A stretch of 64,000 nt of DNA from Candidatus Gastranaerophilales bacterium (GTDB lineage Bacteria; Cyanobacteriota; Vampirovibrionia; Gastranaerophilales; Gastranaerophilaceae): NCBI GenBank assembly GCA_947584965.1, contig CANPWQ010000001.1:12480-76479 (forward strand). The letters run 5' to 3'. Positions within the stretch are counted from its first letter, which is position 1; each line of letters begins with the position of its first letter. This document shows, piece by piece, positions 1,912 to 12,693 of the stretch. The notes below the pieces were generated by a model. The model did no database searches. It was not told where the DNA came from and saw only the letters and a program-made list of their open reading frames with translations. A program made the translations under genes and the position numbers.

Positions 1912-2454
1912 TTATAAATCTTTGTTAGCCTCGCCGATTATATTAGCGGCAGCCGTTAAATTCTTTGCAATATCGGAATAAAGCTCCTCTTCTTCGCCTT
2001 GCGCAACCACTGCATTTATCATTTCATCAACATTTTCTTTTATATCCGACAGTTGAGAAACTGTATTTTGCAGTTTTTGAGTTCGCTTTTTCAGAATAAA
2101 ATAATTCAATAACGGTATTGATGAAACACAATTACTCAGCTTTTTTTTAAAGCGTTTAAAAGTATCCTCCGAAACAATAAAGAAGTTTTCCGAACTTTCT
2201 TCTTTTACGGCAGGATTTTCAGTTTCACTGACAGCGAAAAACTCACTATCTGTTGCATTTAGTTTTTTATTTTTTCTTTTACCTTTAGAGCGAATATTCC
2301 CTGTTGTATTTGAAGCAGTTGAAGCGTGTTCGGGCGCAAAAATATTTGTTTGATATGCCCTTACATCTTCATCTATTGCCATATTTATAGTATTTCCCGT
2401 ATTTTTTTGATAAAAATTTACGGGCTGATTTAATCCGTTTGCGCTTATTTCCAT
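1912..2454 (-). CDS. hypothetical protein, possible FlgM-like anti-sigma-28 factor (weak)
   Basis: 180 aa. The N-terminus MEISANGLNQPVNFYQKN resembles the FlgM N-terminus as I recall it. A helical acidic C-terminus follows (..LYSDIAKNLTAAANII..). Same strand as the GT operon and 60 nt downstream of it. Confidence 0.45.
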   Translation of the reverse strand: MEISANGLNQPVNFYQKNTGNTINMAIDEDVRAYQTNIFAPEHASTASNTTGNIRSKGKRKNKKLNATDSEFFAVSETENPAVKEESSENFFIVSEDTFKRFKKKLSNCVSSIPLLNYFILKKRTQKLQNTVSQLSDIKENVDEMINAVVAQGEEEELYSDIAKNLTAAANIIGEANKDL

Positions 2455-2514: not shown

Positions 2515-3987
2515 TTATATGATTTTAATTAATTCGGGGTATTTTTGCGTCAGTTTTTCTTTTTCTTCACTGTTCATTTGAGTCTTTTTAAGCGCTTCAA
2601 CCATATTTTCATAGTATTCATGCTTATATTCATCTTTAATCATGCTGTAATAATAAAGCAGATTATGGACTTTATATGTTAAAAAATCAAACCTTAACGG
2701 TTCAAATGTTTTAGTATCTTTCATCAATTGTTCGACGATATTGAATATTTCTATATGGTCAATAAGCCGTCTGTTATTGTCGGATAAAACGGAGCCTTCT
2801 CTGTTAAACCTGTATACATAAAGTTTTTCGCGAATAAAAAATATCCGTTCCGCTGTTAAAAGAGTTCCGAATATAACTTTATGGTCCTCAAAATCAAGCC
2901 CTTCCGCAAATTCTATATTGTTTTTATCAAATAATTCTTTTGTATACAACTTATTCCAGACGCACATCGGATATTTAAACGGCGATAAATCCCGCCAATT
3001 AAATATTTTATCCGCAGGTATAATATCAAAATTTGCGTCAATAAAGTAAGGAAAAGGTGCATTTACTTTATTTCCCTCATCATAACCGTCAGGCATGCAC
3101 ATTGCAATATCAAGATTTTTTTCTTTTATTAGAGAATATAACCTTTCATACATATTCGGCTTAACCCAATCGTCAGGGTCAACAAAGCCTATGCATTCGC
3201 CTGTTGCAAGCCTTAAGCCGTCATTGCGGGCTGCGCCCGTTCCTTTATTTTCTTTGTGTATTACTTTTATTCTGTTATCTTTAGATTTGTATTCTTCAAG
3301 TATTTTATAGCTTTCATCGGTTGAACCGTCATCTACGCAGATTATTTCTATCTCTTTTAATGTCTGATTAATTAAGCTGTCTAAAGATTGCCTTAAGTAC
3401 TTTCCCACATTATAAACGGGCAGAATTACAGATACTTTTGGCTTAATTTCATAATTAACCTGAATGACGGCAGGCTTTTGCTCTTTTTGTTCTTTTTTAA
3501 CTTTTTGAGATTTTAAAGTAAAAAGTTTTTTCCCTGCTTTTATTAATTTTTTATAGGGTTTTAATTGTTCTTCATAGTATTTTTTTTGCTCTATAAGCTG
3601 ATTTGAAAGGATTTGAGTTTCCGTATTAAATTTTTCATTCAATGCCGATATAATTTCTTCATAGCTTTTTTGAAGCTCTTGAGTTTTTTCTTTTAAATTA
3701 TTTACATGCCAATTTTCTGTTTCTTTTTGACGTCTTATTATTTCTTCTTCATACCAATTTTTTTGCGAGAGTAGTTCTTTTTCATAATACTCTTTTACCG
3801 CTTCTTTATCCTGAGTATTTTTTACGTTGTAATATTCTTCCAATTCCTTTTTTAATTGGGATTTTTCATTTTCAAAATCAGTTAATAACTTTGATTTTTC
3901 ATATTCAAATTTAGATTTTAAAAGTTCAATTTCACTTTCGTAAAATTGCTTTTGAGATTTTAAATATTTTTCATCAAAGTTATCCAT
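2515..3987 (-). CDS. family 2 glycosyltransferase with an N-terminal coiled-coil of about 175 aa
   Basis: K/E/Q-rich heptad-like N-terminus, then VSVILPVYNVGKYL..IICVDDGSTDES..GFVDPDDWV (GT-A fold, DxD motif). Confidence 0.9.
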   Translation of the reverse strand: MDNFDEKYLKSQKQFYESEIELLKSKFEYEKSKLLTDFENEKSQLKKELEEYYNVKNTQDKEAVKEYYEKELLSQKNWYEEEIIRRQKETENWHVNNLKEKTQELQKSYEEIISALNEKFNTETQILSNQLIEQKKYYEEQLKPYKKLIKAGKKLFTLKSQKVKKEQKEQKPAVIQVNYEIKPKVSVILPVYNVGKYLRQSLDSLINQTLKEIEIICVDDGSTDESYKILEEYKSKDNRIKVIHKENKGTGAARNDGLRLATGECIGFVDPDDWVKPNMYERLYSLIKEKNLDIAMCMPDGYDEGNKVNAPFPYFIDANFDIIPADKIFNWRDLSPFKYPMCVWNKLYTKELFDKNNIEFAEGLDFEDHKVIFGTLLTAERIFFIREKLYVYRFNREGSVLSDNNRRLIDHIEIFNIVEQLMKDTKTFEPLRFDFLTYKVHNLLYYYSMIKDEYKHEYYENMVEALKKTQMNSEEKEKLTQKYPELIKII

Positions 3988-3993
3988 AATTCT

Positions 3994-5439
3994 TTAATTC
4001 TTTTTTACTGATTTTTTTAATTTGTTTTGAAGCTGTTCCAGTTTTTTATACGCCTTTAGTAATATTTTAACCAATAAATATTTATTTTCATAATAATTTT
4101 TTTGCTCGTTTAAAGCCTGCATATAATGCTGTTTTTGCTCTTTTAATTTCCATTCGTAATCGGCAATCAGTTTTTCTTTTACCTGTCTTACGGACTCCGC
4201 CTGCCATTTTTTCAATTCATATTCCTGTTTAATCATTTTTTGATTAAATTCGCATTCTAAAACGGCAGATTGCTCTTGAAGCCTGCGAGTGACTTCTTTT
4301 AAGCGTTCTTCTTCGCTAAAATTCTTCCACCATTCTTCTATCTGCCTTTTTTCCTGCTCGCTTTCGCGTTTATACTGTTCAAGATAATCTTTAATTGCTT
4401 TAATATCAAGATTACATTTATGCTCTGCGGCTTTTATTCTCTTATTTGAGGTTTTATATTTTTCAATTAAAAAATTCCAAAATCCGTAATAATCACGTGA
4501 AATTATATTGCAATATTCATCGTAGCAATAACCGACTTTTAAGCTCTCTTTTTGCTCCTCGGTTAAATTTAAGCCGATAAACATTTCACGCATTCGTTTA
4601 TAATATTCTTCATAATATTTATCTTCAAGCAGAGTATAGCGGTGAAATATATCATCAATAAGCCACCTTAAAATTTCATTTTGCTTTTCGGGGAAAAAAC
4701 TTGCCTGCTGTAATATGCTGTATGTTAATTTTGCCATGTCTATTCGGTCATAAACCTTTTTATCGGAGTTTTGCATTGTTGATAAACCCCTGTTTCGGCG
4801 GTAATAATATAAATTTTCCCAAAGTATATTTATTTTTTCTGCTTTCAAATATGTTTCAAAGAAAAACGGCATATCTTCATAAATATAGCCCTCGCTGAAC
4901 TTTACTCCAATTTTTTCTAAAAATTCACGTTTATATATTTTATTCCACAAAACTACGTTAATATTTAAAATTTCATCTTTTGTATCTTCGGGAGAAAATA
5001 CGCTATCACCGTATTTTTCAAGCGATTTTAAAGAATATAAGTCATCAGTATAAAATTCCTGCGACTTATCATCATACAATTGAGCTTTACACATTGTTAT
5101 ATCGGTATCCGCTGATTTTGCTTTGTTATACATTTTTTCAAACATATCAAGCTCTACCCAGTCATCAGCGTCTACAAAGCCTACATATTCGCCCGAAGCT
5201 ATTTCGAGTCCTAAATTTCTTGCATAAGATTGCCCCGATTCCTGCTCCGTATTTAAAAATTTTATTCTTTTATCCTTTTGAGCATACTGCATTACTATTT
5301 CTTTGCTGTTATCGGTTGACGCGTCATTAATACAGATTATCTCTATATCCTCTAACGATTGATATATCAGCGTTGTAAGAGCTTTTGATATATACCTTTC
5401 CACATTCCTGTACGGCATTATTACGGATACTTTAGTCAT
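3994..5439 (-). CDS. family 2 glycosyltransferase with a C-terminal coiled-coil of about 170 aa
   Basis: VSVIMPYRNVERYI..IICINDASTDNS..GFVDADDWV, then a K/E/Q-rich helical tail (..EWWKNFSEEERLKEV..QKNYYENKY..). The catalytic domain is a paralogue of the one at 8913-11267. Confidence 0.9.
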   Translation of the reverse strand: MTKVSVIMPYRNVERYISKALTTLIYQSLEDIEIICINDASTDNSKEIVMQYAQKDKRIKFLNTEQESGQSYARNLGLEIASGEYVGFVDADDWVELDMFEKMYNKAKSADTDITMCKAQLYDDKSQEFYTDDLYSLKSLEKYGDSVFSPEDTKDEILNINVVLWNKIYKREFLEKIGVKFSEGYIYEDMPFFFETYLKAEKINILWENLYYYRRNRGLSTMQNSDKKVYDRIDMAKLTYSILQQASFFPEKQNEILRWLIDDIFHRYTLLEDKYYEEYYKRMREMFIGLNLTEEQKESLKVGYCYDEYCNIISRDYYGFWNFLIEKYKTSNKRIKAAEHKCNLDIKAIKDYLEQYKRESEQEKRQIEEWWKNFSEEERLKEVTRRLQEQSAVLECEFNQKMIKQEYELKKWQAESVRQVKEKLIADYEWKLKEQKQHYMQALNEQKNYYENKYLLVKILLKAYKKLEQLQNKLKKSVKKN

Positions 5440-6640
5440 TGTCGTTCAACTTCTCCAGTTTTGAATACTTAAAAGGCAATTTAAATTTTATCTTTTTAAT
5501 TATACTTACATGCAATTTATCATTATTGTAGTATATATCAAAAATGTTAGGATTTTTCTTAATTTTTGTTATATGTTTTTTATACTTTAAATAGTAAAAT
5601 CCGTTTTCTTTGTATATTATCTCCATTATTTTATACATTAATTTCATTTTATATTTTTGAAATTCATAATAACGGATTGAGTTTCGTTTTATGTTGCAAA
5701 ACAAGTAATAATTATATTTAAAAGCACCTTTTACCATATCGGGTGGAAACAGTTTATCATCGGCAAGCGAGCTTTTTGCATTTATTTTATTCATAAATGC
5801 TTTTTTATATTTAGGATTTAAGTGTTCAAATCGGTAGACAAAATCTTCTACTTTTTTTCTGAAGAAAATATATTTTACATCTTCATAATCGCTTATTTGC
5901 TTAATTGAATTATACATAAGCTCGGCAACATCTATAATATCAAGGAACTGACTGCCCGCCTTTTGAACAATTGAACCTTTACGGTTAATTCTGTAATAAT
6001 ACAAAAAATCTCTAACAATAGAAACTCTGGTTGTTTTAAAGAATATTGAAAAGAAAAACGGGCCGTCCTCAAATATTAAGCCGTCGGGAAATTGAGCATT
6101 GCATTCATCTATCAAACTTTTTCGGTACAGTTTATTCCAAGCCATAACGCAAACATCCATTAAAAACGGTTTTGTATCTTTATAGCTGAATGCTCTATTG
6201 TCAAAGGTTTCATCAAAAAATCCCAAAGTATAATACGGGTTAGAATCATCTATCACTTGTCTGCTTTCATCATATTGATGAACCGCACAAATCGCTATAT
6301 CGGTATTTAACGCTGTCATGCTGTTATAAAGTTTTTCCAGCATTGTTTTATCAATCCAATCATCAGAATCAATAAAACTTATAAACTTGCCTTTTGCGAC
6401 CTTTAACCCTGCGTTGCGCGCAGATGATAACCCTCCGTTTTCTTTATCAACTATTTTTATTCTGCTATCTTTATTTTTATATTCCTCTAATATTTTTCTT
6501 GAACTATCCGTTGAGCCGTCATTTACGCAGATTATTTCCGTATTGGCAAAAGTCTGCGCAAGTATTGTATCTAAGCAATTACAAAGATACTTTTCTACAT
6601 TATATACGGGAACTATTACGGATATTTCGGGTTCTTTCAT
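5432..6640 (-). CDS. family 2 glycosyltransferase
   Basis: ISVIVPVYNVEKYL..ICVNDGSTDSS..SFIDSDDWI. I chose the ATG at 6640 because the track's upstream start overlaps the preceding gene. Tandem paralogue of 6642-7838. Confidence 0.9.
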   Translation of the reverse strand: MKEPEISVIVPVYNVEKYLCNCLDTILAQTFANTEIICVNDGSTDSSRKILEEYKNKDSRIKIVDKENGGLSSARNAGLKVAKGKFISFIDSDDWIDKTMLEKLYNSMTALNTDIAICAVHQYDESRQVIDDSNPYYTLGFFDETFDNRAFSYKDTKPFLMDVCVMAWNKLYRKSLIDECNAQFPDGLIFEDGPFFFSIFFKTTRVSIVRDFLYYYRINRKGSIVQKAGSQFLDIIDVAELMYNSIKQISDYEDVKYIFFRKKVEDFVYRFEHLNPKYKKAFMNKINAKSSLADDKLFPPDMVKGAFKYNYYLFCNIKRNSIRYYEFQKYKMKLMYKIMEIIYKENGFYYLKYKKHITKIKKNPNIFDIYYNNDKLHVSIIKKIKFKLPFKYSKLEKLNDND

Positions 6641-6641
6641 A

Positions 6642-7838
6642 CTAATCTCGAGGCTCCAGCTTTGAATATTCAAACTTAAAACTGAATTTTATTTTCATAA
6701 ACAATACCACATATATTCTGTCATTTTCATACCAAACATCATAAAGATTTGCGCGTTTCTTCAGTCTTAAAATAATTTTTCTGTATTTAAAATAGTATAT
6801 ATTTTCTTCCGTATAAAGAATTTGCATTACTTTATACATTAATTTTACAATAAATTTATCATAGTGATAAAGGATTATATTACATCTTTTTCTTATATCA
6901 AATAAGCGTTTGCGGACTCTTGATGCTTTTTCGTCAACAATATTAAAATCAAAAATACTGCCGTCAAAAAGAAAATCTTTCGTCCTTAATTTTTTTGAAA
7001 ACCGCTTTTTATAAAACATATTTACAAGTTCATAGCGATATACTATATCATCAATTTTGCGGATATAAAATTCATTTTTTATATCGTTAAAACAAGGCAA
7101 ATCCTTAATAGAGTTATACATTAATTCAACAACATCAATAATATCAAGAAAGTGCGCTCCGCCTTTTTCTACAATCGAGCCTTTACGGTTAATTCGGTAG
7201 TTATATAGAAAATCTCTTACAATAGAAACACGTTTTGCCTTAAAGTATATGGAAAAGAAAAACGGGCCGTCCTCAAATATTAAGCCGTCAGGGAAACGGG
7301 CATTATATTTATCCAAAAAATTTTTGTGGTACAGCTTATTCCAAGCCATAACACACACATCCATAATAAACGGCAAAGTGTCATTATAGTCAAAGATACG
7401 GTTATCAAAGGTTTTATCAAAAAACGACAGATTAAAATATTTTTGCGATTCGTCGCTTTGCGCCTTTTGCTCGTCATATAATCTCACCGCACATATTGAT
7501 ATTTCGCTGTTTAATTCGGTTATATTTTTATAGAGCTTTTCAAGCATTGTATTTTCAACCCAATCATCTGAGTCAATAAAGCTGATAAATTCACCTTTTG
7601 CCCTATCAAGCCCAAAGTTGCGCGCGGAAGATAATCCGCCGTTTTTCTTATCAATTATTACAAATCTTGAGTCTTTATTTTTGTATTCTTCCAAAATTGC
7701 CCTTGAATTATCCGTTGAACCGTCATTTACACAGATTACTTCAAAATCTTGAAATGTCTGCGCAATTATTGAATCAAGACATCTTCTTAAATATTTTTCA
7801 ACGTTATAAACAGGAACGATTATGGATATCTTCGGCAT
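6642..7838 (-). CDS. family 2 glycosyltransferase
   Basis: ISIIVPVYNVEKYL..ICVNDGSTDNS..SFIDSDDWV. It shares the Tyr/Lys-rich C-terminal module with the previous gene. Confidence 0.9.
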   Translation of the reverse strand: MPKISIIVPVYNVEKYLRRCLDSIIAQTFQDFEVICVNDGSTDNSRAILEEYKNKDSRFVIIDKKNGGLSSARNFGLDRAKGEFISFIDSDDWVENTMLEKLYKNITELNSEISICAVRLYDEQKAQSDESQKYFNLSFFDKTFDNRIFDYNDTLPFIMDVCVMAWNKLYHKNFLDKYNARFPDGLIFEDGPFFFSIYFKAKRVSIVRDFLYNYRINRKGSIVEKGGAHFLDIIDVVELMYNSIKDLPCFNDIKNEFYIRKIDDIVYRYELVNMFYKKRFSKKLRTKDFLFDGSIFDFNIVDEKASRVRKRLFDIRKRCNIILYHYDKFIVKLMYKVMQILYTEENIYYFKYRKIILRLKKRANLYDVWYENDRIYVVLFMKIKFSFKFEYSKLEPRD

Positions 7839-7844
7839 TTAACC

Positions 7845-8909
7845 TTAACCCCGCTTCTGCAAAATTTCTTCTTTTAATTTTGCCAGTTTTTCGTTCGTCT
7901 TTTCACTCATTTCAGTGTAGATTTTTGTTAATTCAGCGTAAAACATAGTATTCATTTCGTTTATACGGGTGTAAATTTGTTCAATATCTTCATCTCTGCT
8001 TGGAGTTTCAGAAGTGTTTAAAGGTACTTCTTTTATTTGAACTTGATTTTTAAGTTTCTCATTTACTTCATTTAGCTCTCTGTCAAGGCGCTCATGAAGC
8101 TCCTGTTTTGCGTTTGCATTTAATGTTTCCGTGTATTTATAGTTATTTGTAACTTCTTCATAAACTTTATTTATTTCCGCACCTTTTTTATTAATTTCGG
8201 AATTTATGTAATCGTAAATCTTTGTAATATCAACATATACCATGTCTTTTAATAAATTAACGGAATTTTTTAGTTCATTTGTAATTGTTTGAGCTTCATT
8301 TTGCGAGTAATTACGATTTTCATAAATTGTTTTTTCAAGCTGGTTAATTCTGCTTACAATTTCATATTCTTTATTATTTATTGTTTCTATTGCTGTTTTT
8401 GCGCCTTTATCAAGAGAATTTTTAATATAATTTTCGTAACTTTTAACAATATCTGTCAATTGAGCGCAATAAACTCCAAGTTTGCCTTGTATTATTGAAT
8501 CTATTAATGTGCTATTTTCAAGATATTCTCTTTTATAAATTTTTCCGTTTTCAATATTTAATTTTTCACCGGAATTAAAAAGTACTTCGGGCGTTATTCC
8601 GCCATGAAAACTCTCGAATATTACTTGTTCGGGAGGTATAAAGCATATATAATCCCCTTGAGCTAAAGATAGCGCCATTGATTTAGCTTTTTCTAATTCA
8701 CTTTCACTGCCGGTATTAATAAGTTTTATTCGCTCATCACTTTGAGAAGCATCTTGCACAAGTTCTTGCGATTTATCATTTGAACCGTTATTTATACAAA
8801 TAAGTTCATAATCTTCAAATTTTTGGTTTAATATACTGTCAATACAATTTTTTATTGTATCTTGTGCGTTTTTATATATTACGATTATTGATACTTTAGG
8901 TTTAGTCAT
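7845..8909 (-). CDS. degenerate GT2-like N-terminal domain fused to a coiled-coil of about 230 aa (probably non-catalytic)
   Basis: VSIIVIYKNAQDTI..LICINNGSNDKS is GT2-like. The DxD position reads CFIPPEQV instead of F(V/I)D(S/P/A)DDW, and the rest of the GT fold is missing. The tail contains VYEEVTNNYKYTE. Confidence 0.75.
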   Translation of the reverse strand: MTKPKVSIIVIYKNAQDTIKNCIDSILNQKFEDYELICINNGSNDKSQELVQDASQSDERIKLINTGSESELEKAKSMALSLAQGDYICFIPPEQVIFESFHGGITPEVLFNSGEKLNIENGKIYKREYLENSTLIDSIIQGKLGVYCAQLTDIVKSYENYIKNSLDKGAKTAIETINNKEYEIVSRINQLEKTIYENRNYSQNEAQTITNELKNSVNLLKDMVYVDITKIYDYINSEINKKGAEINKVYEEVTNNYKYTETLNANAKQELHERLDRELNEVNEKLKNQVQIKEVPLNTSETPSRDEDIEQIYTRINEMNTMFYAELTKIYTEMSEKTNEKLAKLKEEILQKRG

Positions 8910-8912
8910 ACA

Positions 8913-11267
8913 TTATCTCTTTTTGGCTTTTTCCCATAATTTTTGAAAAATATTTTTTTTATTTTCTAATAGCACCTGCTCGGTTTCTTTAAGTTTATTT
9001 TCCATTGAAATTAATTTATTTTCGTATTTTATTCTCTGTTTATTTAATTTATTTTCAAACTCATCACGCAGTTCATTTATAAATTTATTTTGCGAGTATT
9101 CCCAATTATTTTGAACCTCGGTTAATATTTGCGTGTCTGCTTTTTGGTTTAACAGCTCTTTTAATGCTTCATCCTCAGACTTTCTTTCATTTAGTAATTT
9201 ATAAATTTCGCCTGATGTATAATTTAATTTTTTATCAAAATCATGGCTGTTTTCATTAAGTTGTTTAAACGCTTTAGCTAATTCAGAGTTTGTATAAGCA
9301 TAAACTTCACCAACCCTTAAATTAATCTCATTATTTATTATTTTAGATGAGTTTTTAATTTCTTCATTTAATTTTGTTTCAAGCTGATTAACTTTTTCAG
9401 AAGCATTATTTTCTGCTTTTTCGTACTGGTGGTCAATATAAGAATAAACCTTGTCTTTTGTTTGATTTAAGTTAGTTTTTATTTCATCAGACGTTTTATT
9501 AATGTATGAATATATATCATCTTTTGTTTGATTTAAATTGGCACTTATTTCATCAGATTTTTGATTTATGAATATATATAAATCTTCTTTTGTTTTATTT
9601 TGATATTCAACTGTTTCATTCGTTTTTTGATTTATATATGCATATAAATCGTCTTTTGTTTTATTTTGATACTCAACTGTTTCGTCTGCTCTTTGATCTA
9701 TGTATGTATACAAATCATCTTTTACATTATTTTGATACTCAATGGTTTCATCGTTTTTTTGATTAATATATGTGTATACATCATCCTTTATTTTATTTTG
9801 GTACTCAATGGTTTCATCGGTTCTTTGATTAATGTATGTATATACATCATCTTTTATTGAAATAAAATAATTTTGATTAGCTTGGTTTTCCAGTGCTATT
9901 TTTTCATAAATATTTGTTATCTCATTTTGATGAGCTTGTATTGTTTGATTTATATCATCACGGATATTATTTGTATATTCATAATTTTTAGTTATTTCTT
10001 CATAAACATTCGATATTTTTTCATCCGTCTGCACATTGGAATAATCAATACCGTTAGTTATTTCTTGTTTTAACCAATCATTTGAAGCTGTTATTTTTTC
10101 CGTTAATAAATTTATATTTTGCTCGGAATTTTTTAAAATACTGCGTTTAGCTTCATTTACAATTTTTTCGGTATATTTATAATTTTTGTTGATATCAGTG
10201 TATATATTGGAAAATCTGTTATCCAATTCATCCTTTGGAGTAATTTGAGATAAAAGCCTGTCTTCAACCTCGTGGATATCCAAGTATTCATTAAATACTT
10301 TTTGATTAAATTCCTCAAAAGTTGAATTCATAACAAGTTTGTAGCCTTTAAAATGGTAAACCGATTTCCAGTATTCATCTTCTAAATTTTCTATTTCAAG
10401 ACTCTCAAAAACTTTTTTCATTCCGAAAAAGAACTCGCGGTGGCAATTTTCTTTTAAAAGAGTGTATCTGTGAAATAAATCATTAATAATCCAACCTTGT
10501 ATTTTCTTTTTTTCACTGTCCAAATAAGGAGTATTTTTAACCTTATCATAAGTCAACGAAACCATAGGTATGCGGTCTAAGACTCTGTTATTCATCTGGC
10601 GCATTGTAGAGGTTCTGCGGTTGACTCTGTAAGCATAAAAGTCTTTCCAAATAATTTTTATTCTGCTAGCAGGCAGGTATGAAAAATAGAAAAACGGTAA
10701 ATCTTCATAAATATAGCCTTCAGGAAACTTTGCACGTGTCGATTTTAGATACAGTGCATTATACAGTTTATTCCATAACGCTACATTTATATCTAAAATT
10801 TGTTCTTTTGTATCTTCTGCGCTAAAAATACTATCAGCAAAGCCTTTTAACGGAGTAAGCGAATAATAATCTGATTCTATACGTTCTTTTGTAACATCGT
10901 CAAACTCATGAGCCATACACATAGTAATTTCCGTGCAATATTCAACTGCCGTATTATAAAGCTGTTCAAACATATCGGGAGCTATAATATCATCCGAGTC
11001 AACAAATCCGATATATTCACCTTTCGCAATTTCAATTGCACGGTTTCTTGCATAGCCCTGTCCCTGTCTTGTAGGGATTTCAATTAACTTTATCCTATTA
11101 TCTTTTGCCATGTAATTTTTTACTATCTGAGCGGATTTATCCTCCGAGGCATCATTTACCATAATTATTTCAATGTCCTCAAGAGTCTGCGCAATAACAG
11201 AACGTAAACATTCATCAATATAATTTTCTACATTATTAAACGGTATAATTATTGATACTTTTGGCAT
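8913..11267 (-). CDS. family 2 glycosyltransferase with a C-terminal repeat/coiled-coil region of about 450 aa
   Basis: VSIIIPFNNVENYI..IIMVNDASEDKS..GFVDSDDII. The tail carries two NY(K/E)YT motifs and seven 22-aa repeats. Confidence 0.9.
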   Translation of the reverse strand: MPKVSIIIPFNNVENYIDECLRSVIAQTLEDIEIIMVNDASEDKSAQIVKNYMAKDNRIKLIEIPTRQGQGYARNRAIEIAKGEYIGFVDSDDIIAPDMFEQLYNTAVEYCTEITMCMAHEFDDVTKERIESDYYSLTPLKGFADSIFSAEDTKEQILDINVALWNKLYNALYLKSTRAKFPEGYIYEDLPFFYFSYLPASRIKIIWKDFYAYRVNRRTSTMRQMNNRVLDRIPMVSLTYDKVKNTPYLDSEKKKIQGWIINDLFHRYTLLKENCHREFFFGMKKVFESLEIENLEDEYWKSVYHFKGYKLVMNSTFEEFNQKVFNEYLDIHEVEDRLLSQITPKDELDNRFSNIYTDINKNYKYTEKIVNEAKRSILKNSEQNINLLTEKITASNDWLKQEITNGIDYSNVQTDEKISNVYEEITKNYEYTNNIRDDINQTIQAHQNEITNIYEKIALENQANQNYFISIKDDVYTYINQRTDETIEYQNKIKDDVYTYINQKNDETIEYQNNVKDDLYTYIDQRADETVEYQNKTKDDLYAYINQKTNETVEYQNKTKEDLYIFINQKSDEISANLNQTKDDIYSYINKTSDEIKTNLNQTKDKVYSYIDHQYEKAENNASEKVNQLETKLNEEIKNSSKIINNEINLRVGEVYAYTNSELAKAFKQLNENSHDFDKKLNYTSGEIYKLLNERKSEDEALKELLNQKADTQILTEVQNNWEYSQNKFINELRDEFENKLNKQRIKYENKLISMENKLKETEQVLLENKKNIFQKLWEKAKKR
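9426..9857 (-). repeat. in-frame tandem array of about seven 66-bp (22-aa) Tyr-rich repeats inside the 784-aa GT2
   Basis: IKDDVYTYINQRTDETIEYQNK / IKDDVYTYINQKNDETIEYQNN / VKDDLYTYIDQRADETVEYQNK / TKDDLYAYINQKTNETVEYQNK / TKEDLYIFINQKSDEISANLNQ / TKDDIYSYINKTSDEIKTNLNQ / TKDKVYSYIDHQ.. Confidence 0.9.
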
Positions 11268-11274
11268 TATTATC

Positions 11275-12570
11275 TCACTTCGTCAATTCATCCCTTAATT
11301 CGGCAACAATTTTTTCCGTGTATTTGTAATTTTTTGATATTTCCTCGTATATAAGATTTATTTCATTATTTTTCTTTTCTATTGCCTCATTAAGGTAATC
11401 GTAAACTTTAGGGAATACCTGCTGCGTTTTTTCTTCTATCGCCTCATTAAGGTAATCGTAAACTTTAGGGAATACCTGCTGCGTTTTTTCTTCTATCGCC
11501 TCATTTATATTATCATAGATTTCAATACTTACTTCCTGCACCTTTTTTTCAAGTGCTTCATTAACGTAAGTGTAAATTTGCGAAACTTCCTCATCAAACA
11601 GCTTTTTTAAGTACTCAAAAGACTCATTGGTAAATCCGTATATTTTATTGACTTCACTATACAGCTTTTTTAAGTCTTCATCTGTTGCGTTTATTAATAT
11701 ATTAGTAGTCGTTCCGCCTATATTATTTTTTAACGATTTACCAAACGAATTTTGCCTGTATTCCAATATTTTAGGCGCATATTTTGTATAAGTTAAATAA
11801 TAGTAATAACAATCATAAACAGGATGTTCAAAAGGCATAAGCCACGGCTTAAATCTGCCCGATAAGTGCAATATAGAAGCATTTGTAAGACTTTTAGCTT
11901 TTATATTATTATATAAAAAGAACTGATAGTTCCATTTTTCATCAAGTTCTTTAATTTTTCCGTCAAGAACACAATTAATAATATCCTGATCCTGCCATAA
12001 AATTATGTCTTTATGTTTTTTGCCAAATTCAAACAACTCAGCACTTATTGCATTTTTACGCCAATAACCTAAATTTATCAGCATTACTCCCGCATTAAAG
12101 TATTTTTTTATGTTGAGTCTTTCTGACTCTTTTTTTGTTTCCACATCTAAGACCATTGCCGCGGGTGAATTTTTTATATCTGTATTAAATAACTCCTCTA
12201 AGGATGTTCTGACTATTACGTCACAATCTAAATATAAAATTTTATCGACTTTAGGCAAAACCTCGGGCAGTAAAAATCTGAAATACGTAGGCAGAGTAAC
12301 ATGATAATTTTTATAGTGTTTATTGTTATCTTTTAACATCGGGCAGGAGGAAAAATCTTTTACTTCCATTTTTATATATTCAATATTAAAATTTTTAATA
12401 TTTTTTAATAATTCAATGTCAGATTTGTCACTCTTTTTTAATCCGCCGTCCAGTACGTATATATTGATATTATCTTTTACCGAAGCATTTTTTAATATTG
12501 AAACAAGAGAAACACTAAATTGTTCAATATAATTTTTATCAAGACTATAGCAAATATTGTATTCTGACAT
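11275..12570 (-). CDS. family 8 glycosyltransferase (LPS-type retaining GT) with a C-terminal repeat tail
   Basis: YNICYSLDKNY.., YLDCDVIV (DxD), NAGVMLINL, QDQDIIN. ATG at 12570 is preceded by GGAGAAAAAG; the track start at 12591 is an alternative. The tail ends in IYEEISKNYKYTEKIV. Confidence 0.88.
   Translation of the reverse strand: MSEYNICYSLDKNYIEQFSVSLVSILKNASVKDNINIYVLDGGLKKSDKSDIELLKNIKNFNIEYIKMEVKDFSSCPMLKDNNKHYKNYHVTLPTYFRFLLPEVLPKVDKILYLDCDVIVRTSLEELFNTDIKNSPAAMVLDVETKKESERLNIKKYFNAGVMLINLGYWRKNAISAELFEFGKKHKDIILWQDQDIINCVLDGKIKELDEKWNYQFFLYNNIKAKSLTNASILHLSGRFKPWLMPFEHPVYDCYYYYLTYTKYAPKILEYRQNSFGKSLKNNIGGTTTNILINATDEDLKKLYSEVNKIYGFTNESFEYLKKLFDEEVSQIYTYVNEALEKKVQEVSIEIYDNINEAIEEKTQQVFPKVYDYLNEAIEEKTQQVFPKVYDYLNEAIEKKNNEINLIYEEISKNYKYTEKIVAELRDELTK
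11385..11498 (-). repeat. perfect 57-bp x2 tandem duplication (19 aa, EAIEEKTQQVFPKVYDYLN) within the GT8 tail
   Basis: cctcattaaggtaatcgtaaactttagggaatacctgctgcgttttttcttctatcg occurs twice back to back. More diverged copies flank it on both sides. Confidence 0.95.
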
Positions 12571-12693
12571 CTTTTTCTCCTTTGCGGACATTTAAAATTG
12601 TACTATACATACACAAAAAAAAACACTTATGTAATAATAATTAAAGTATTAAAAAAAAATGCCGATTATATATTTGGAAAAACAGGCAATAAA

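Follow-up and report, generated by a model that had tools for sequence, protein, structure and literature searches.

The window analysed here is a stretch of 64,000 nucleotides (nt) from a Candidatus Gastranaerophilales bacterium (GenBank assembly GCA_947584965.1, contig CANPWQ010000001.1, positions 12,480 to 76,479 of the forward strand). Between ftsZ and the gene of an S41 protease it carries an operon of seven glycosyltransferases (GT) on the minus strand (window 2515..12591), which is conserved in records labelled Candidatus Gastranaerophilales. We decided to consider one of these genes, an intact open reading frame (ORF) that encodes a family 2 glycosyltransferase (GT2) of 784 amino acids (aa), the long tail of which contains seven tandem repeats of 22 residues. 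A preliminary description of this DNA, made from its letters, had pointed out these repeats, and they were recovered by Tandem Repeats Finder, by the 22-aa register and by a profile search. The gene can be divided as follows, with the evidence for each part in brackets:

8913..11267, minus strand: tailed GT2 gene, with head, predicted stalk and basic end (ORF, Pfam, AlphaFold2 (AF2) model)
10278..11267, minus strand: GT-A catalytic head, aa 1-330 (PF00535, predicted local distance difference test score (pLDDT) of 85-95, Foldseek, conserved motifs)
9858..10277, minus strand: proximal helical tail, aa 331-470 (motif search, predicted helices H345-377 and H382-468, periodicity)
9396..9857, minus strand: seven units of 22 aa (66 bp), aa 471-624, each of two 11-mers (Tandem Repeats Finder, register, unit identities, predicted helix, periodicity)
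8916..9440, minus strand: conserved C-terminal module, aa 610-784, SE.Y.YTN ... QR.KYE.KL ... (alignment, profile search)
8916..8975, minus strand: basic amphipathic C-terminal end, aa 765-784, VLLENKKNIFQKLWEKAKKR (charge, hydrophobic moment, homologues)

The head is matched by PF00535, the GT2 family of Pfam, over aa 5-132 (E=2.9e-34), and its DSDD (aa 90-93) and ED (aa 188-189) motifs are intact, their residues being invariant in an alignment of 18 sequences. Its best structural matches by Foldseek (E=1e-16 to 3e-19 over ~335 residues) are CgT/GalT1 (5hea), RmlT, TarS and TarP, all of them GT-A enzymes that act on a polymer or glycan already made and possess a C-terminal part for oligomerisation; phmmer also retrieves 5hea (E=8e-28). 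To judge from its motifs, the head is a catalytically intact GT-A domain of generic GT2 type. The C-terminal parts of TarS, TarP, RmlT and CgT are globular and beta-rich or short and helical, whereas the tail considered here appears as a repeat-built rod of several hundred residues.

Within this tail, Tandem Repeats Finder detects 5.5 copies of a 66-bp period at 9494-9858 (80% matches, score 394), and the 22-aa register places seven head-to-tail units in aa 471-624. The range of 9426-9857 given previously has the correct upper limit, but its lower limit cuts 30 nt from the last and most degenerate unit, the true start being 9396. Using a profile built from the seven units, we recovered all seven (36-43 bits each, E=1e-70) and no other match anywhere in the 1.73-Mb genome. 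Units 1-4 have the form (I/V/T)KDD(V/L)Y(T/A)YI(N/D)Q(R/K)xDET(I/V)EYQN(K/N), in agreement with the consensus proposed earlier, from which units 5-7 diverge: the second half of units 5 and 6 reads DEIxxNLNQ, and unit 7 is the most diverged of the array. The decay towards the C-terminal copies was also seen correctly, as amino acid identity to unit 1 falls through 86, 77, 72, 40, 45 and 27% for the later units in order. K2, Y6 and I9 are invariant across all seven units. The count of aromatic residues is two to three per unit instead of the three or four claimed (Y6 and Y/F8 throughout, plus Y19 in the first four units), with 18 Tyr in the 154-aa array.

In the DNA, identity between the units is 62-89% (about 50% for unit 7), and the longest perfect match of adjacent units at the repeat offset measures 20 nt. 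The array is therefore a diverged repeat open to unequal recombination, unlike a near-perfect slippage tract. The idea that it would be hypermutable by slipped-strand mispairing is not sustained, because its units are too diverged and the variation that we describe below is found between species-level lineages.

Helical periodicity and the ends of the tail

Each 22-mer is made of two 11-mers, and in the array the hydrophobicity spectrum has its maximum at 3.66 residues, a value reached by none of 500 shuffled sequences, with an amplitude of 0.13 at the heptad value of 3.5, that is, without any heptad signal. The suggestion that the 22-aa period is twice 11, a hendecad, is thus borne out. Peaks at 3.64 (2/500 shuffles) and 3.70 (3/500) were obtained for the proximal and distal parts of the tail, and the catalytic head, taken as a negative control, gave no periodicity signal (279/500 shuffles). 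Hendecad coiled coils are defined by a periodicity of 11/3 = 3.67 and are slightly right-handed, the value for an ideal helix being 3.63 (PMC4786415); the array combines this 11/3 hydrophobic periodicity with a continuous predicted helix. We propose an a-d-e-h register in which positions 1/12 are h, 5/16 are a (V/L/I and T/I), 8/19 are d (Tyr or Asn) and 9/20 are e (Ile and Q/L). The periodicity of 3.66-3.67, the seam of a-d-e-h type and the polar or aromatic core residues are like those of known hendecad coiled coils, such as the stalk of tetrabrachion and stalk segments of trimeric autotransporters; these are extracellular fibres, whereas the candidate stalk described here belongs to a cytoplasmic enzyme and is known from its sequence and from a monomer model.

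That model was obtained with AF2, run as a monomer on the 18-sequence alignment. The array is predicted as one continuous helix of 147 residues (H475-621), the other helices of the tail being H345-377, H382-468, H626-708, H712-770 and H773-783, and in an orthologue with a single unit this lone unit merges into the next helix (H433-538). The 444-aa tail contains only one Pro and three Gly.

The tail is covered by no Pfam or NCBIfam model and has no sequence match in the PDB, so that the search for a curated family to which it could be assigned gave none, and the Foldseek matches listed align over about 335 columns or fewer, which is the length of the head only. A period of 11 or 22 residues is also that of the amphipathic helices which lie flat on membranes or lipid surfaces in apolipoprotein A-I, alpha-synuclein, perilipin and LEA proteins, and the repeats had been called apolipoprotein- or LEA-like. 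Weak matches of this kind do exist, to PF01442 (16.9 bits, with faint PF01442 matches in relatives too) and to Synuclein (PF01387, 12 bits), but they are far under the curated cut-offs of 90 and 23.3 bits, respectively, and no LEA family is among the matches listed. The array has only a narrow hydrophobic seam, polar residues make up almost the whole of the second 11-mer in each unit, and its net charge of -14 (19 K+R vs 33 D+E) is poorly suited to anionic bacterial membranes. We therefore reject membership of the apolipoprotein A1/A4/E and Synuclein/LEA families, and an arrangement of the array flat on a lipid surface appears very improbable.

By contrast with the acidic array, the last 20 residues (VLLENKKNIFQKLWEKAKKR) have a net charge of +5 and are amphipathic, with a hydrophobic moment of 0.4-0.5. 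A basic segment ends all of the 44 homologues found (44/44), and the end is net-positive in 12 of the 13 complete orthologues of the genus. We propose that this basic amphipathic end is a membrane-binding helix, placed most likely on the cytoplasmic face of the membrane. No signal peptide was found in the tailed GT2, and all seven GTs encoded in the operon lack transmembrane segments; the tail is therefore assigned to the cytoplasm, and the view of the repeats as a variable surface module is not supported.

Copy number and tail evolution in related genomes

A search with the tail gave 44 proteins, all with a GT2 head or a family 8 (GT8) head followed by a long tail. The three closest relatives of the 784-aa protein, which are 90-92% identical to it in aligned columns, measure 696, 674 and 613 aa and differ by whole units, since they have three, two and one unit, respectively (the shortest also has a change of 39 aa elsewhere). 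A fifth orthologue, L005, has five. The five related Candidatus Gastranaerophilales genomes thus carry 7, 5, 3, 2 and 1 units, always in register, and the different lineages keep different, recognisably orthologous units. The number of copies is far from invariant and the array is predicted as a helix, in place of the constant, unstructured filler that the preliminary description had named as the outcome speaking against its reading.

Each of the five genomes is a separate species representative, and the synonymous divergence (dS) of the head between the window and the other orthologues is 0.36-0.41. Because these are species-level relatives, with a dS of about 0.4, they are not strains of one population and the differences do not represent strain-level phase variation. 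Within the array, units 3-5 of the window (9594-9791) are identical to units 1-3 of L005 over 198 of 198 nt, while the 66-nt blocks flanking this patch are identical to those of L005 at only 56-63 of 66 positions (85-95%). Such a patch of identity amid diverged blocks points to a recent recombination in the array between species-level lineages.

All these genomes are metagenome-assembled genomes (MAGs) built from short reads, and the differences in copy number could be produced by the collapse or expansion of repeats during assembly; the array of the neighbouring GT8 gene, described below, contains a perfect 57-bp duplication of the type that is prone to mis-assembly. The longest stretch that the 22-aa units have in common without mismatch at the repeat offset is, however, 20 nt, which is below what de Bruijn collapse would need at usual k, and a collapse artefact is therefore unlikely for this array. 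In addition, each of the five independent assemblies yields a different array, always in frame, in which different orthologous units are kept, and L002 and L003, from two samples, agree. An origin of the differences in assembly is for these reasons very improbable.

The ratio of non-synonymous to synonymous substitution rates (dN/dS) is 0.03-0.06 for the head, 0.11-0.29 for the proximal and distal tail and 0.16-0.47 for the aligned codons of the array in five pairs, a value of 1.9 coming from one pair with only 28 codons and a dS of 0.03. These values indicate that the tail is under purifying selection, less tight than that on the head. Orthologues are present in 36 of the 41 genomes of the genus, and among the best-scoring loci examined the complete ones have tails of 145-537 aa (a 3.7-fold range) with a periodicity of 3.57-3.69, which is kept even where the tail sequence is unrelated. 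Within the family, pairs with 99% identical heads have tails that differ by 95 and 254 residues.

These observations bear on the possibility that the array is unstructured low-complexity filler devoid of function. Its composition, with abundant N, K, E, D and Q, and the low to moderate confidence of the tail model would fit such a filler, but the 3.66 periodicity is significant (0/500 shuffles), K2, Y6 and I9 are kept in 7/7 units, Pro and Gly are almost absent, dN/dS is below 0.5 in the pairs with enough sites, and orthologues with unrelated tails show the same periodicity. We give this explanation very little credence.

The 22-mer array is specific to the lineage of the window. Unit 7 is the counterpart of a single-copy element that opens the conserved C-terminal module in distant relatives and, on the evidence of sequence comparison, it is the ancestral first element of this module. 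A scan of JGI metagenomes for further close orthologues returned only one distant GT2.

Neighbouring glycosyltransferases and the tail family

Two neighbours of the gene in the operon also have tails:

11275..12591, minus strand: GT8 of 438 aa with a PF01501 match, the upstream neighbour, its tail with 19-aa units
7845..8909, minus strand: degenerate GT2 of 354 aa, matching the N-terminal half of PF00535 only, with a coiled tail

The units of the GT8 (11350-11577) are 19 aa long, of the form IYDNVNKTIExxIxxxCxS, and its tail has a periodicity of 3.72 and ends in a shared NYKYT motif (11317-11352). Four units are present here, vs 10, 13 and 15 in relatives, and the array contains the perfect 57-bp tandem duplication mentioned above, at 11385-11498. 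The tail of the GT8 is thus a second length-variable stalk of the same operon. We rejected the possibility that the two stalks compensate each other in length: in four loci the GT8/GT2 tails measure 121/453, 235/365, 235/343 and 330/282 aa, with sums of 574-612, from which 6-8 GT8 units were predicted for the five-unit genome, and 13 were found (GT8 vs GT2 tail lengths: r of about -0.76, n=5, by hand calculation). The GT8 and GT2 stalks therefore vary independently.

The degenerate GT2 has 'FIPPEQ' where the DxD motif would be, followed by a coiled tail of about 200 aa with the NYKYT motif, and from its sequence it is probably a non-catalytic partner. Coiled extensions are carried by all seven GTs. 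Two other members, both GT2s, lie within 2515-5439 on the minus strand: in the one of 490 aa an N-terminal coil, about 180 aa long, precedes a basic stretch, and in the one of 481 aa the coil is C-terminal, measures about 130 aa and has KLKKSVKKN at its end. Across the operon the lengths of the stalks are graded.

The proximal tail of the 784-aa protein contains the motif [IV]Y..I.KNY.YT twice (10170-10205 and 9972-10007). Within this genome the motif [IV]YEE[IV].xNY.YT is found only in the three adjacent tailed GTs, and it occurs one to eight times in every member of the family. The C-terminal module is common to GT2-headed and GT8-headed relatives. In L033/L034 and other Gastranaerophilales, the QR.KYE.KL module is found on a long-tailed GT8 and the end of the GT2 differs (REEMKSPIKKLIEKY...), whereas in the window the GT8 stops right after NYKYTEKIV and it is the GT2 that bears the GT8-type module. 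The GT2 and the degenerate GT2 have also exchanged places here compared with other lineages. The presence of the module on a different head, together with the swapped gene order, indicates that heads and tails have been shuffled.

A profile of the module found 67 representatives among 1.84 billion proteins, 37 of them at E<1e-10, and all matches below an E of about 1e-8 reach the C-terminal end of the protein. The module is present at 24 genome loci, almost all labelled Candidatus Gastranaerophilales; two tail-module loci, L010 and L016, are in MAGs labelled 'uncultured Muribaculaceae', the others being Gastranaerophilales or unclassified, and we attribute these two labels to probable mis-binning or mislabelling and not to transfer.

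A candidate membrane-anchored spacer

By analogy with known systems, we propose with moderate confidence that the array is an in-line extension of a hendecad helical stalk joining the GT-A head to a basic membrane-binding end, and that it would serve as a spacer of variable length, or 'enzymatic ruler', similar to those of FutA/FutB and WbdD. A stalk of 11/3 periodicity would link the soluble head to the conserved C-terminal module, and most likely assembles into an oligomeric coiled coil, nearly straight or with a slight right-handed twist, with Tyr or Asn at d and Ile, Val or Leu at a and e in its core, the basic end resting most likely on the cytoplasmic face of the membrane. The stalk would lengthen by about 3.3 nm per unit, hence by about 23 nm over the seven units. 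The one to seven units found in related lineages would have arisen by unequal recombination, in register, between diverged units, and the number of units would set the distance between head and anchor, and thus which part or which length of a membrane-anchored glycan the enzyme may reach. The architecture of a catalytic head, a helical stalk and a basic amphipathic end is that expected of such a spacer.

The closest parallel is with the alpha1,3/4-fucosyltransferases FutA and FutB of Helicobacter pylori (GT10), the C-terminal DDLRVNY heptad repeats and amphipathic helices of which act as an 'enzymatic ruler' (Nilsson 2006; PMC2583950), with a number of repeats that tracks the size of the fucosylated O-chains and with concurrent changes reported in both paralogues (PMC2583950). 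Both systems have a soluble cytoplasmic GT with an N-terminal catalytic domain, a variable tandem-repeat helical region and a basic amphipathic C-terminal end; in both, a variable array is present in each of two paralogous or neighbouring enzymes, D, N and Y are frequent in the repeats, and the number of repeats varies, here among the five related genomes (7/5/3/2/1). In contrast to FutA/FutB, the unit here has 22 residues (2x11, periodicity 3.66) and not seven, the head is a GT2 and not a GT10, the diverged units (62-89% nt identity) vary in number between species-level lineages and not within one infecting population, and there is no poly-C phase switch.

Coiled-coil molecular rulers are also known in WbdD (Escherichia coli O9a and Klebsiella pneumoniae O3) and WbbB (K. 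pneumoniae O12) (PMC11231755). As in these proteins, the catalytic module is N-terminal, and thus distal, on an extended coiled coil (here proposed) with a C-terminal membrane amphipathic helix (here putative), and partner GTs are encoded in the same locus. The heads of WbdD and WbbB are chain terminators (a methyltransferase-kinase or a 3-deoxy-D-manno-oct-2-ulosonic acid (Kdo) transferase), that of the present protein being a generic GT2, and the rulers of WbdD and WbbB are not made of variable tandem repeats. They also depend on a Wzm/Wzt ABC transporter, whereas PF01061 (ABC2_membrane, Wzm) has no match in the present genome, which is 94.6% complete, and none in the operon, all 14 of 14 control genomes being positive. 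We therefore reject membership of the WbdD type, no ABC2_membrane protein having been found in the genome.

Several points weigh against the proposed spacer. In addition to Wzm (PF01061), neither Wzx (PF01943) nor an initiating transferase (PF02397) was found in the genome, and no long lipid-linked polymer that would need measuring was identified. Full extension would bring the 444-aa tail to about 67 nm, well beyond the length of known rulers. The AF2 models are monomeric only, so that the tail helices could fold back on each other, and pLDDT is low in the tail (45-75 here and 31-64 in the one-unit orthologue), as expected for the monomer model of something that is probably oligomeric. The variation lies between lineages at a dS of about 0.4 and could be neutral drift of a spacer, and the copy numbers rest on short-read MAG assemblies. 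With respect to the product, a direct extension of lipid A-core, of lipooligosaccharide (LOS) type, is possible, and one Wzy_C/WaaL-like gene is present (C14:21634-22050). Glycosylation of flagellin was rejected on the absence of any Flagellin_N match in the genome, and glycosylation of a serine-rich-repeat adhesin, suggested by the 5hea match, on the absence of any large Ser-rich ORF.

The main rival explanation is that the tail is a scaffold or oligomerisation rod only, which would assemble the seven GTs into one complex, for example via the NY.YT motif of the three adjacent proteins, the number of units drifting neutrally as long as the phase of the helix is kept. The restriction of [IV]YEE[IV].xNY.YT to these three proteins and the coiled extensions on all seven GTs are consistent with it. 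TarS, TarP and RmlT, the structural relatives of the head, oligomerise through their C-terminal domains, which also argues in its favour, as do the 3.7-fold range of tail length in the genus, without obvious pattern, and the searches for PF01943 and PF01061, in which no long-polymer exporter was found. On the other hand, docking alone leaves hundreds of rod residues and a universally conserved basic end unexplained, the dN/dS of 0.16-0.47 in the array indicates constraint, and this explanation overlaps with the proposed spacer, since rulers scaffold too. We consider a pure scaffold possible, though less probable than the spacer.

Alternatively, the Tyr-containing units could be acceptor sites, glycosylated by the GT2 itself or by the neighbouring GT8, in the manner in which glycogenin, also a GT8, glucosylates its own Tyr. 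An invariant Tyr every 22 residues, a GT8 in the same operon and the lack of matches to the lipid-linked pathway markers (PF01061, PF01943 and PF02397) in the genome would agree with this. No evidence points to it specifically, however, and two of the three Tyr occupy core positions in the proposed register; moreover, priming of the glycogenin type requires a flexible acceptor loop, not a rod. Of the explanations weighed here, we find this one the least probable.

The spacer could also be extended to the whole operon as a 'vertical assembly line', in which the seven GT heads would stand at graded heights above one membrane-bound scaffold, on N- or C-terminal stalks of about 100-450 residues, the length of the stalk setting the order or position of sugar addition. 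The 22-aa and 19-aa stalks and the swapping of heads at the NY.YT motif would then re-programme the surface glycan of these uncultured gut Melainabacteria, in a multi-ruler system lacking the Wzm/Wzt exporter. This extension is speculative and we regard it as improbable.

The principle of a repeat-built stalk or ruler is already known from H. pylori and E. coli, where reach-setting stalks are the accepted explanation for the size variation of Lewis antigens and for the control of O-antigen length by WbdD. What is new here is the hendecad unit (22 = 2x11) with Tyr and Asn in its proposed core, an undescribed family of tails restricted to Gastranaerophilales, and the occurrence of two variable stalks per operon with head-tail shuffling in a genome in which no Wzm-type exporter was found. 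The locus suggests that the same design arose in non-photosynthetic cyanobacterial relatives from herbivore guts. If the number of units tunes the product, the natural series from one to seven provides a ready test set to relate stalk length to glycan structure, and the array would also be a clean system in which to study long hendecad coiled coils with core Tyr; should the number prove neutral, the locus would be no more than one further variable coiled-coil spacer.

The operon ends with a conserved ORF of 180 aa (1912-2454, minus strand) that has no Pfam match and is syntenic in L001-L003.

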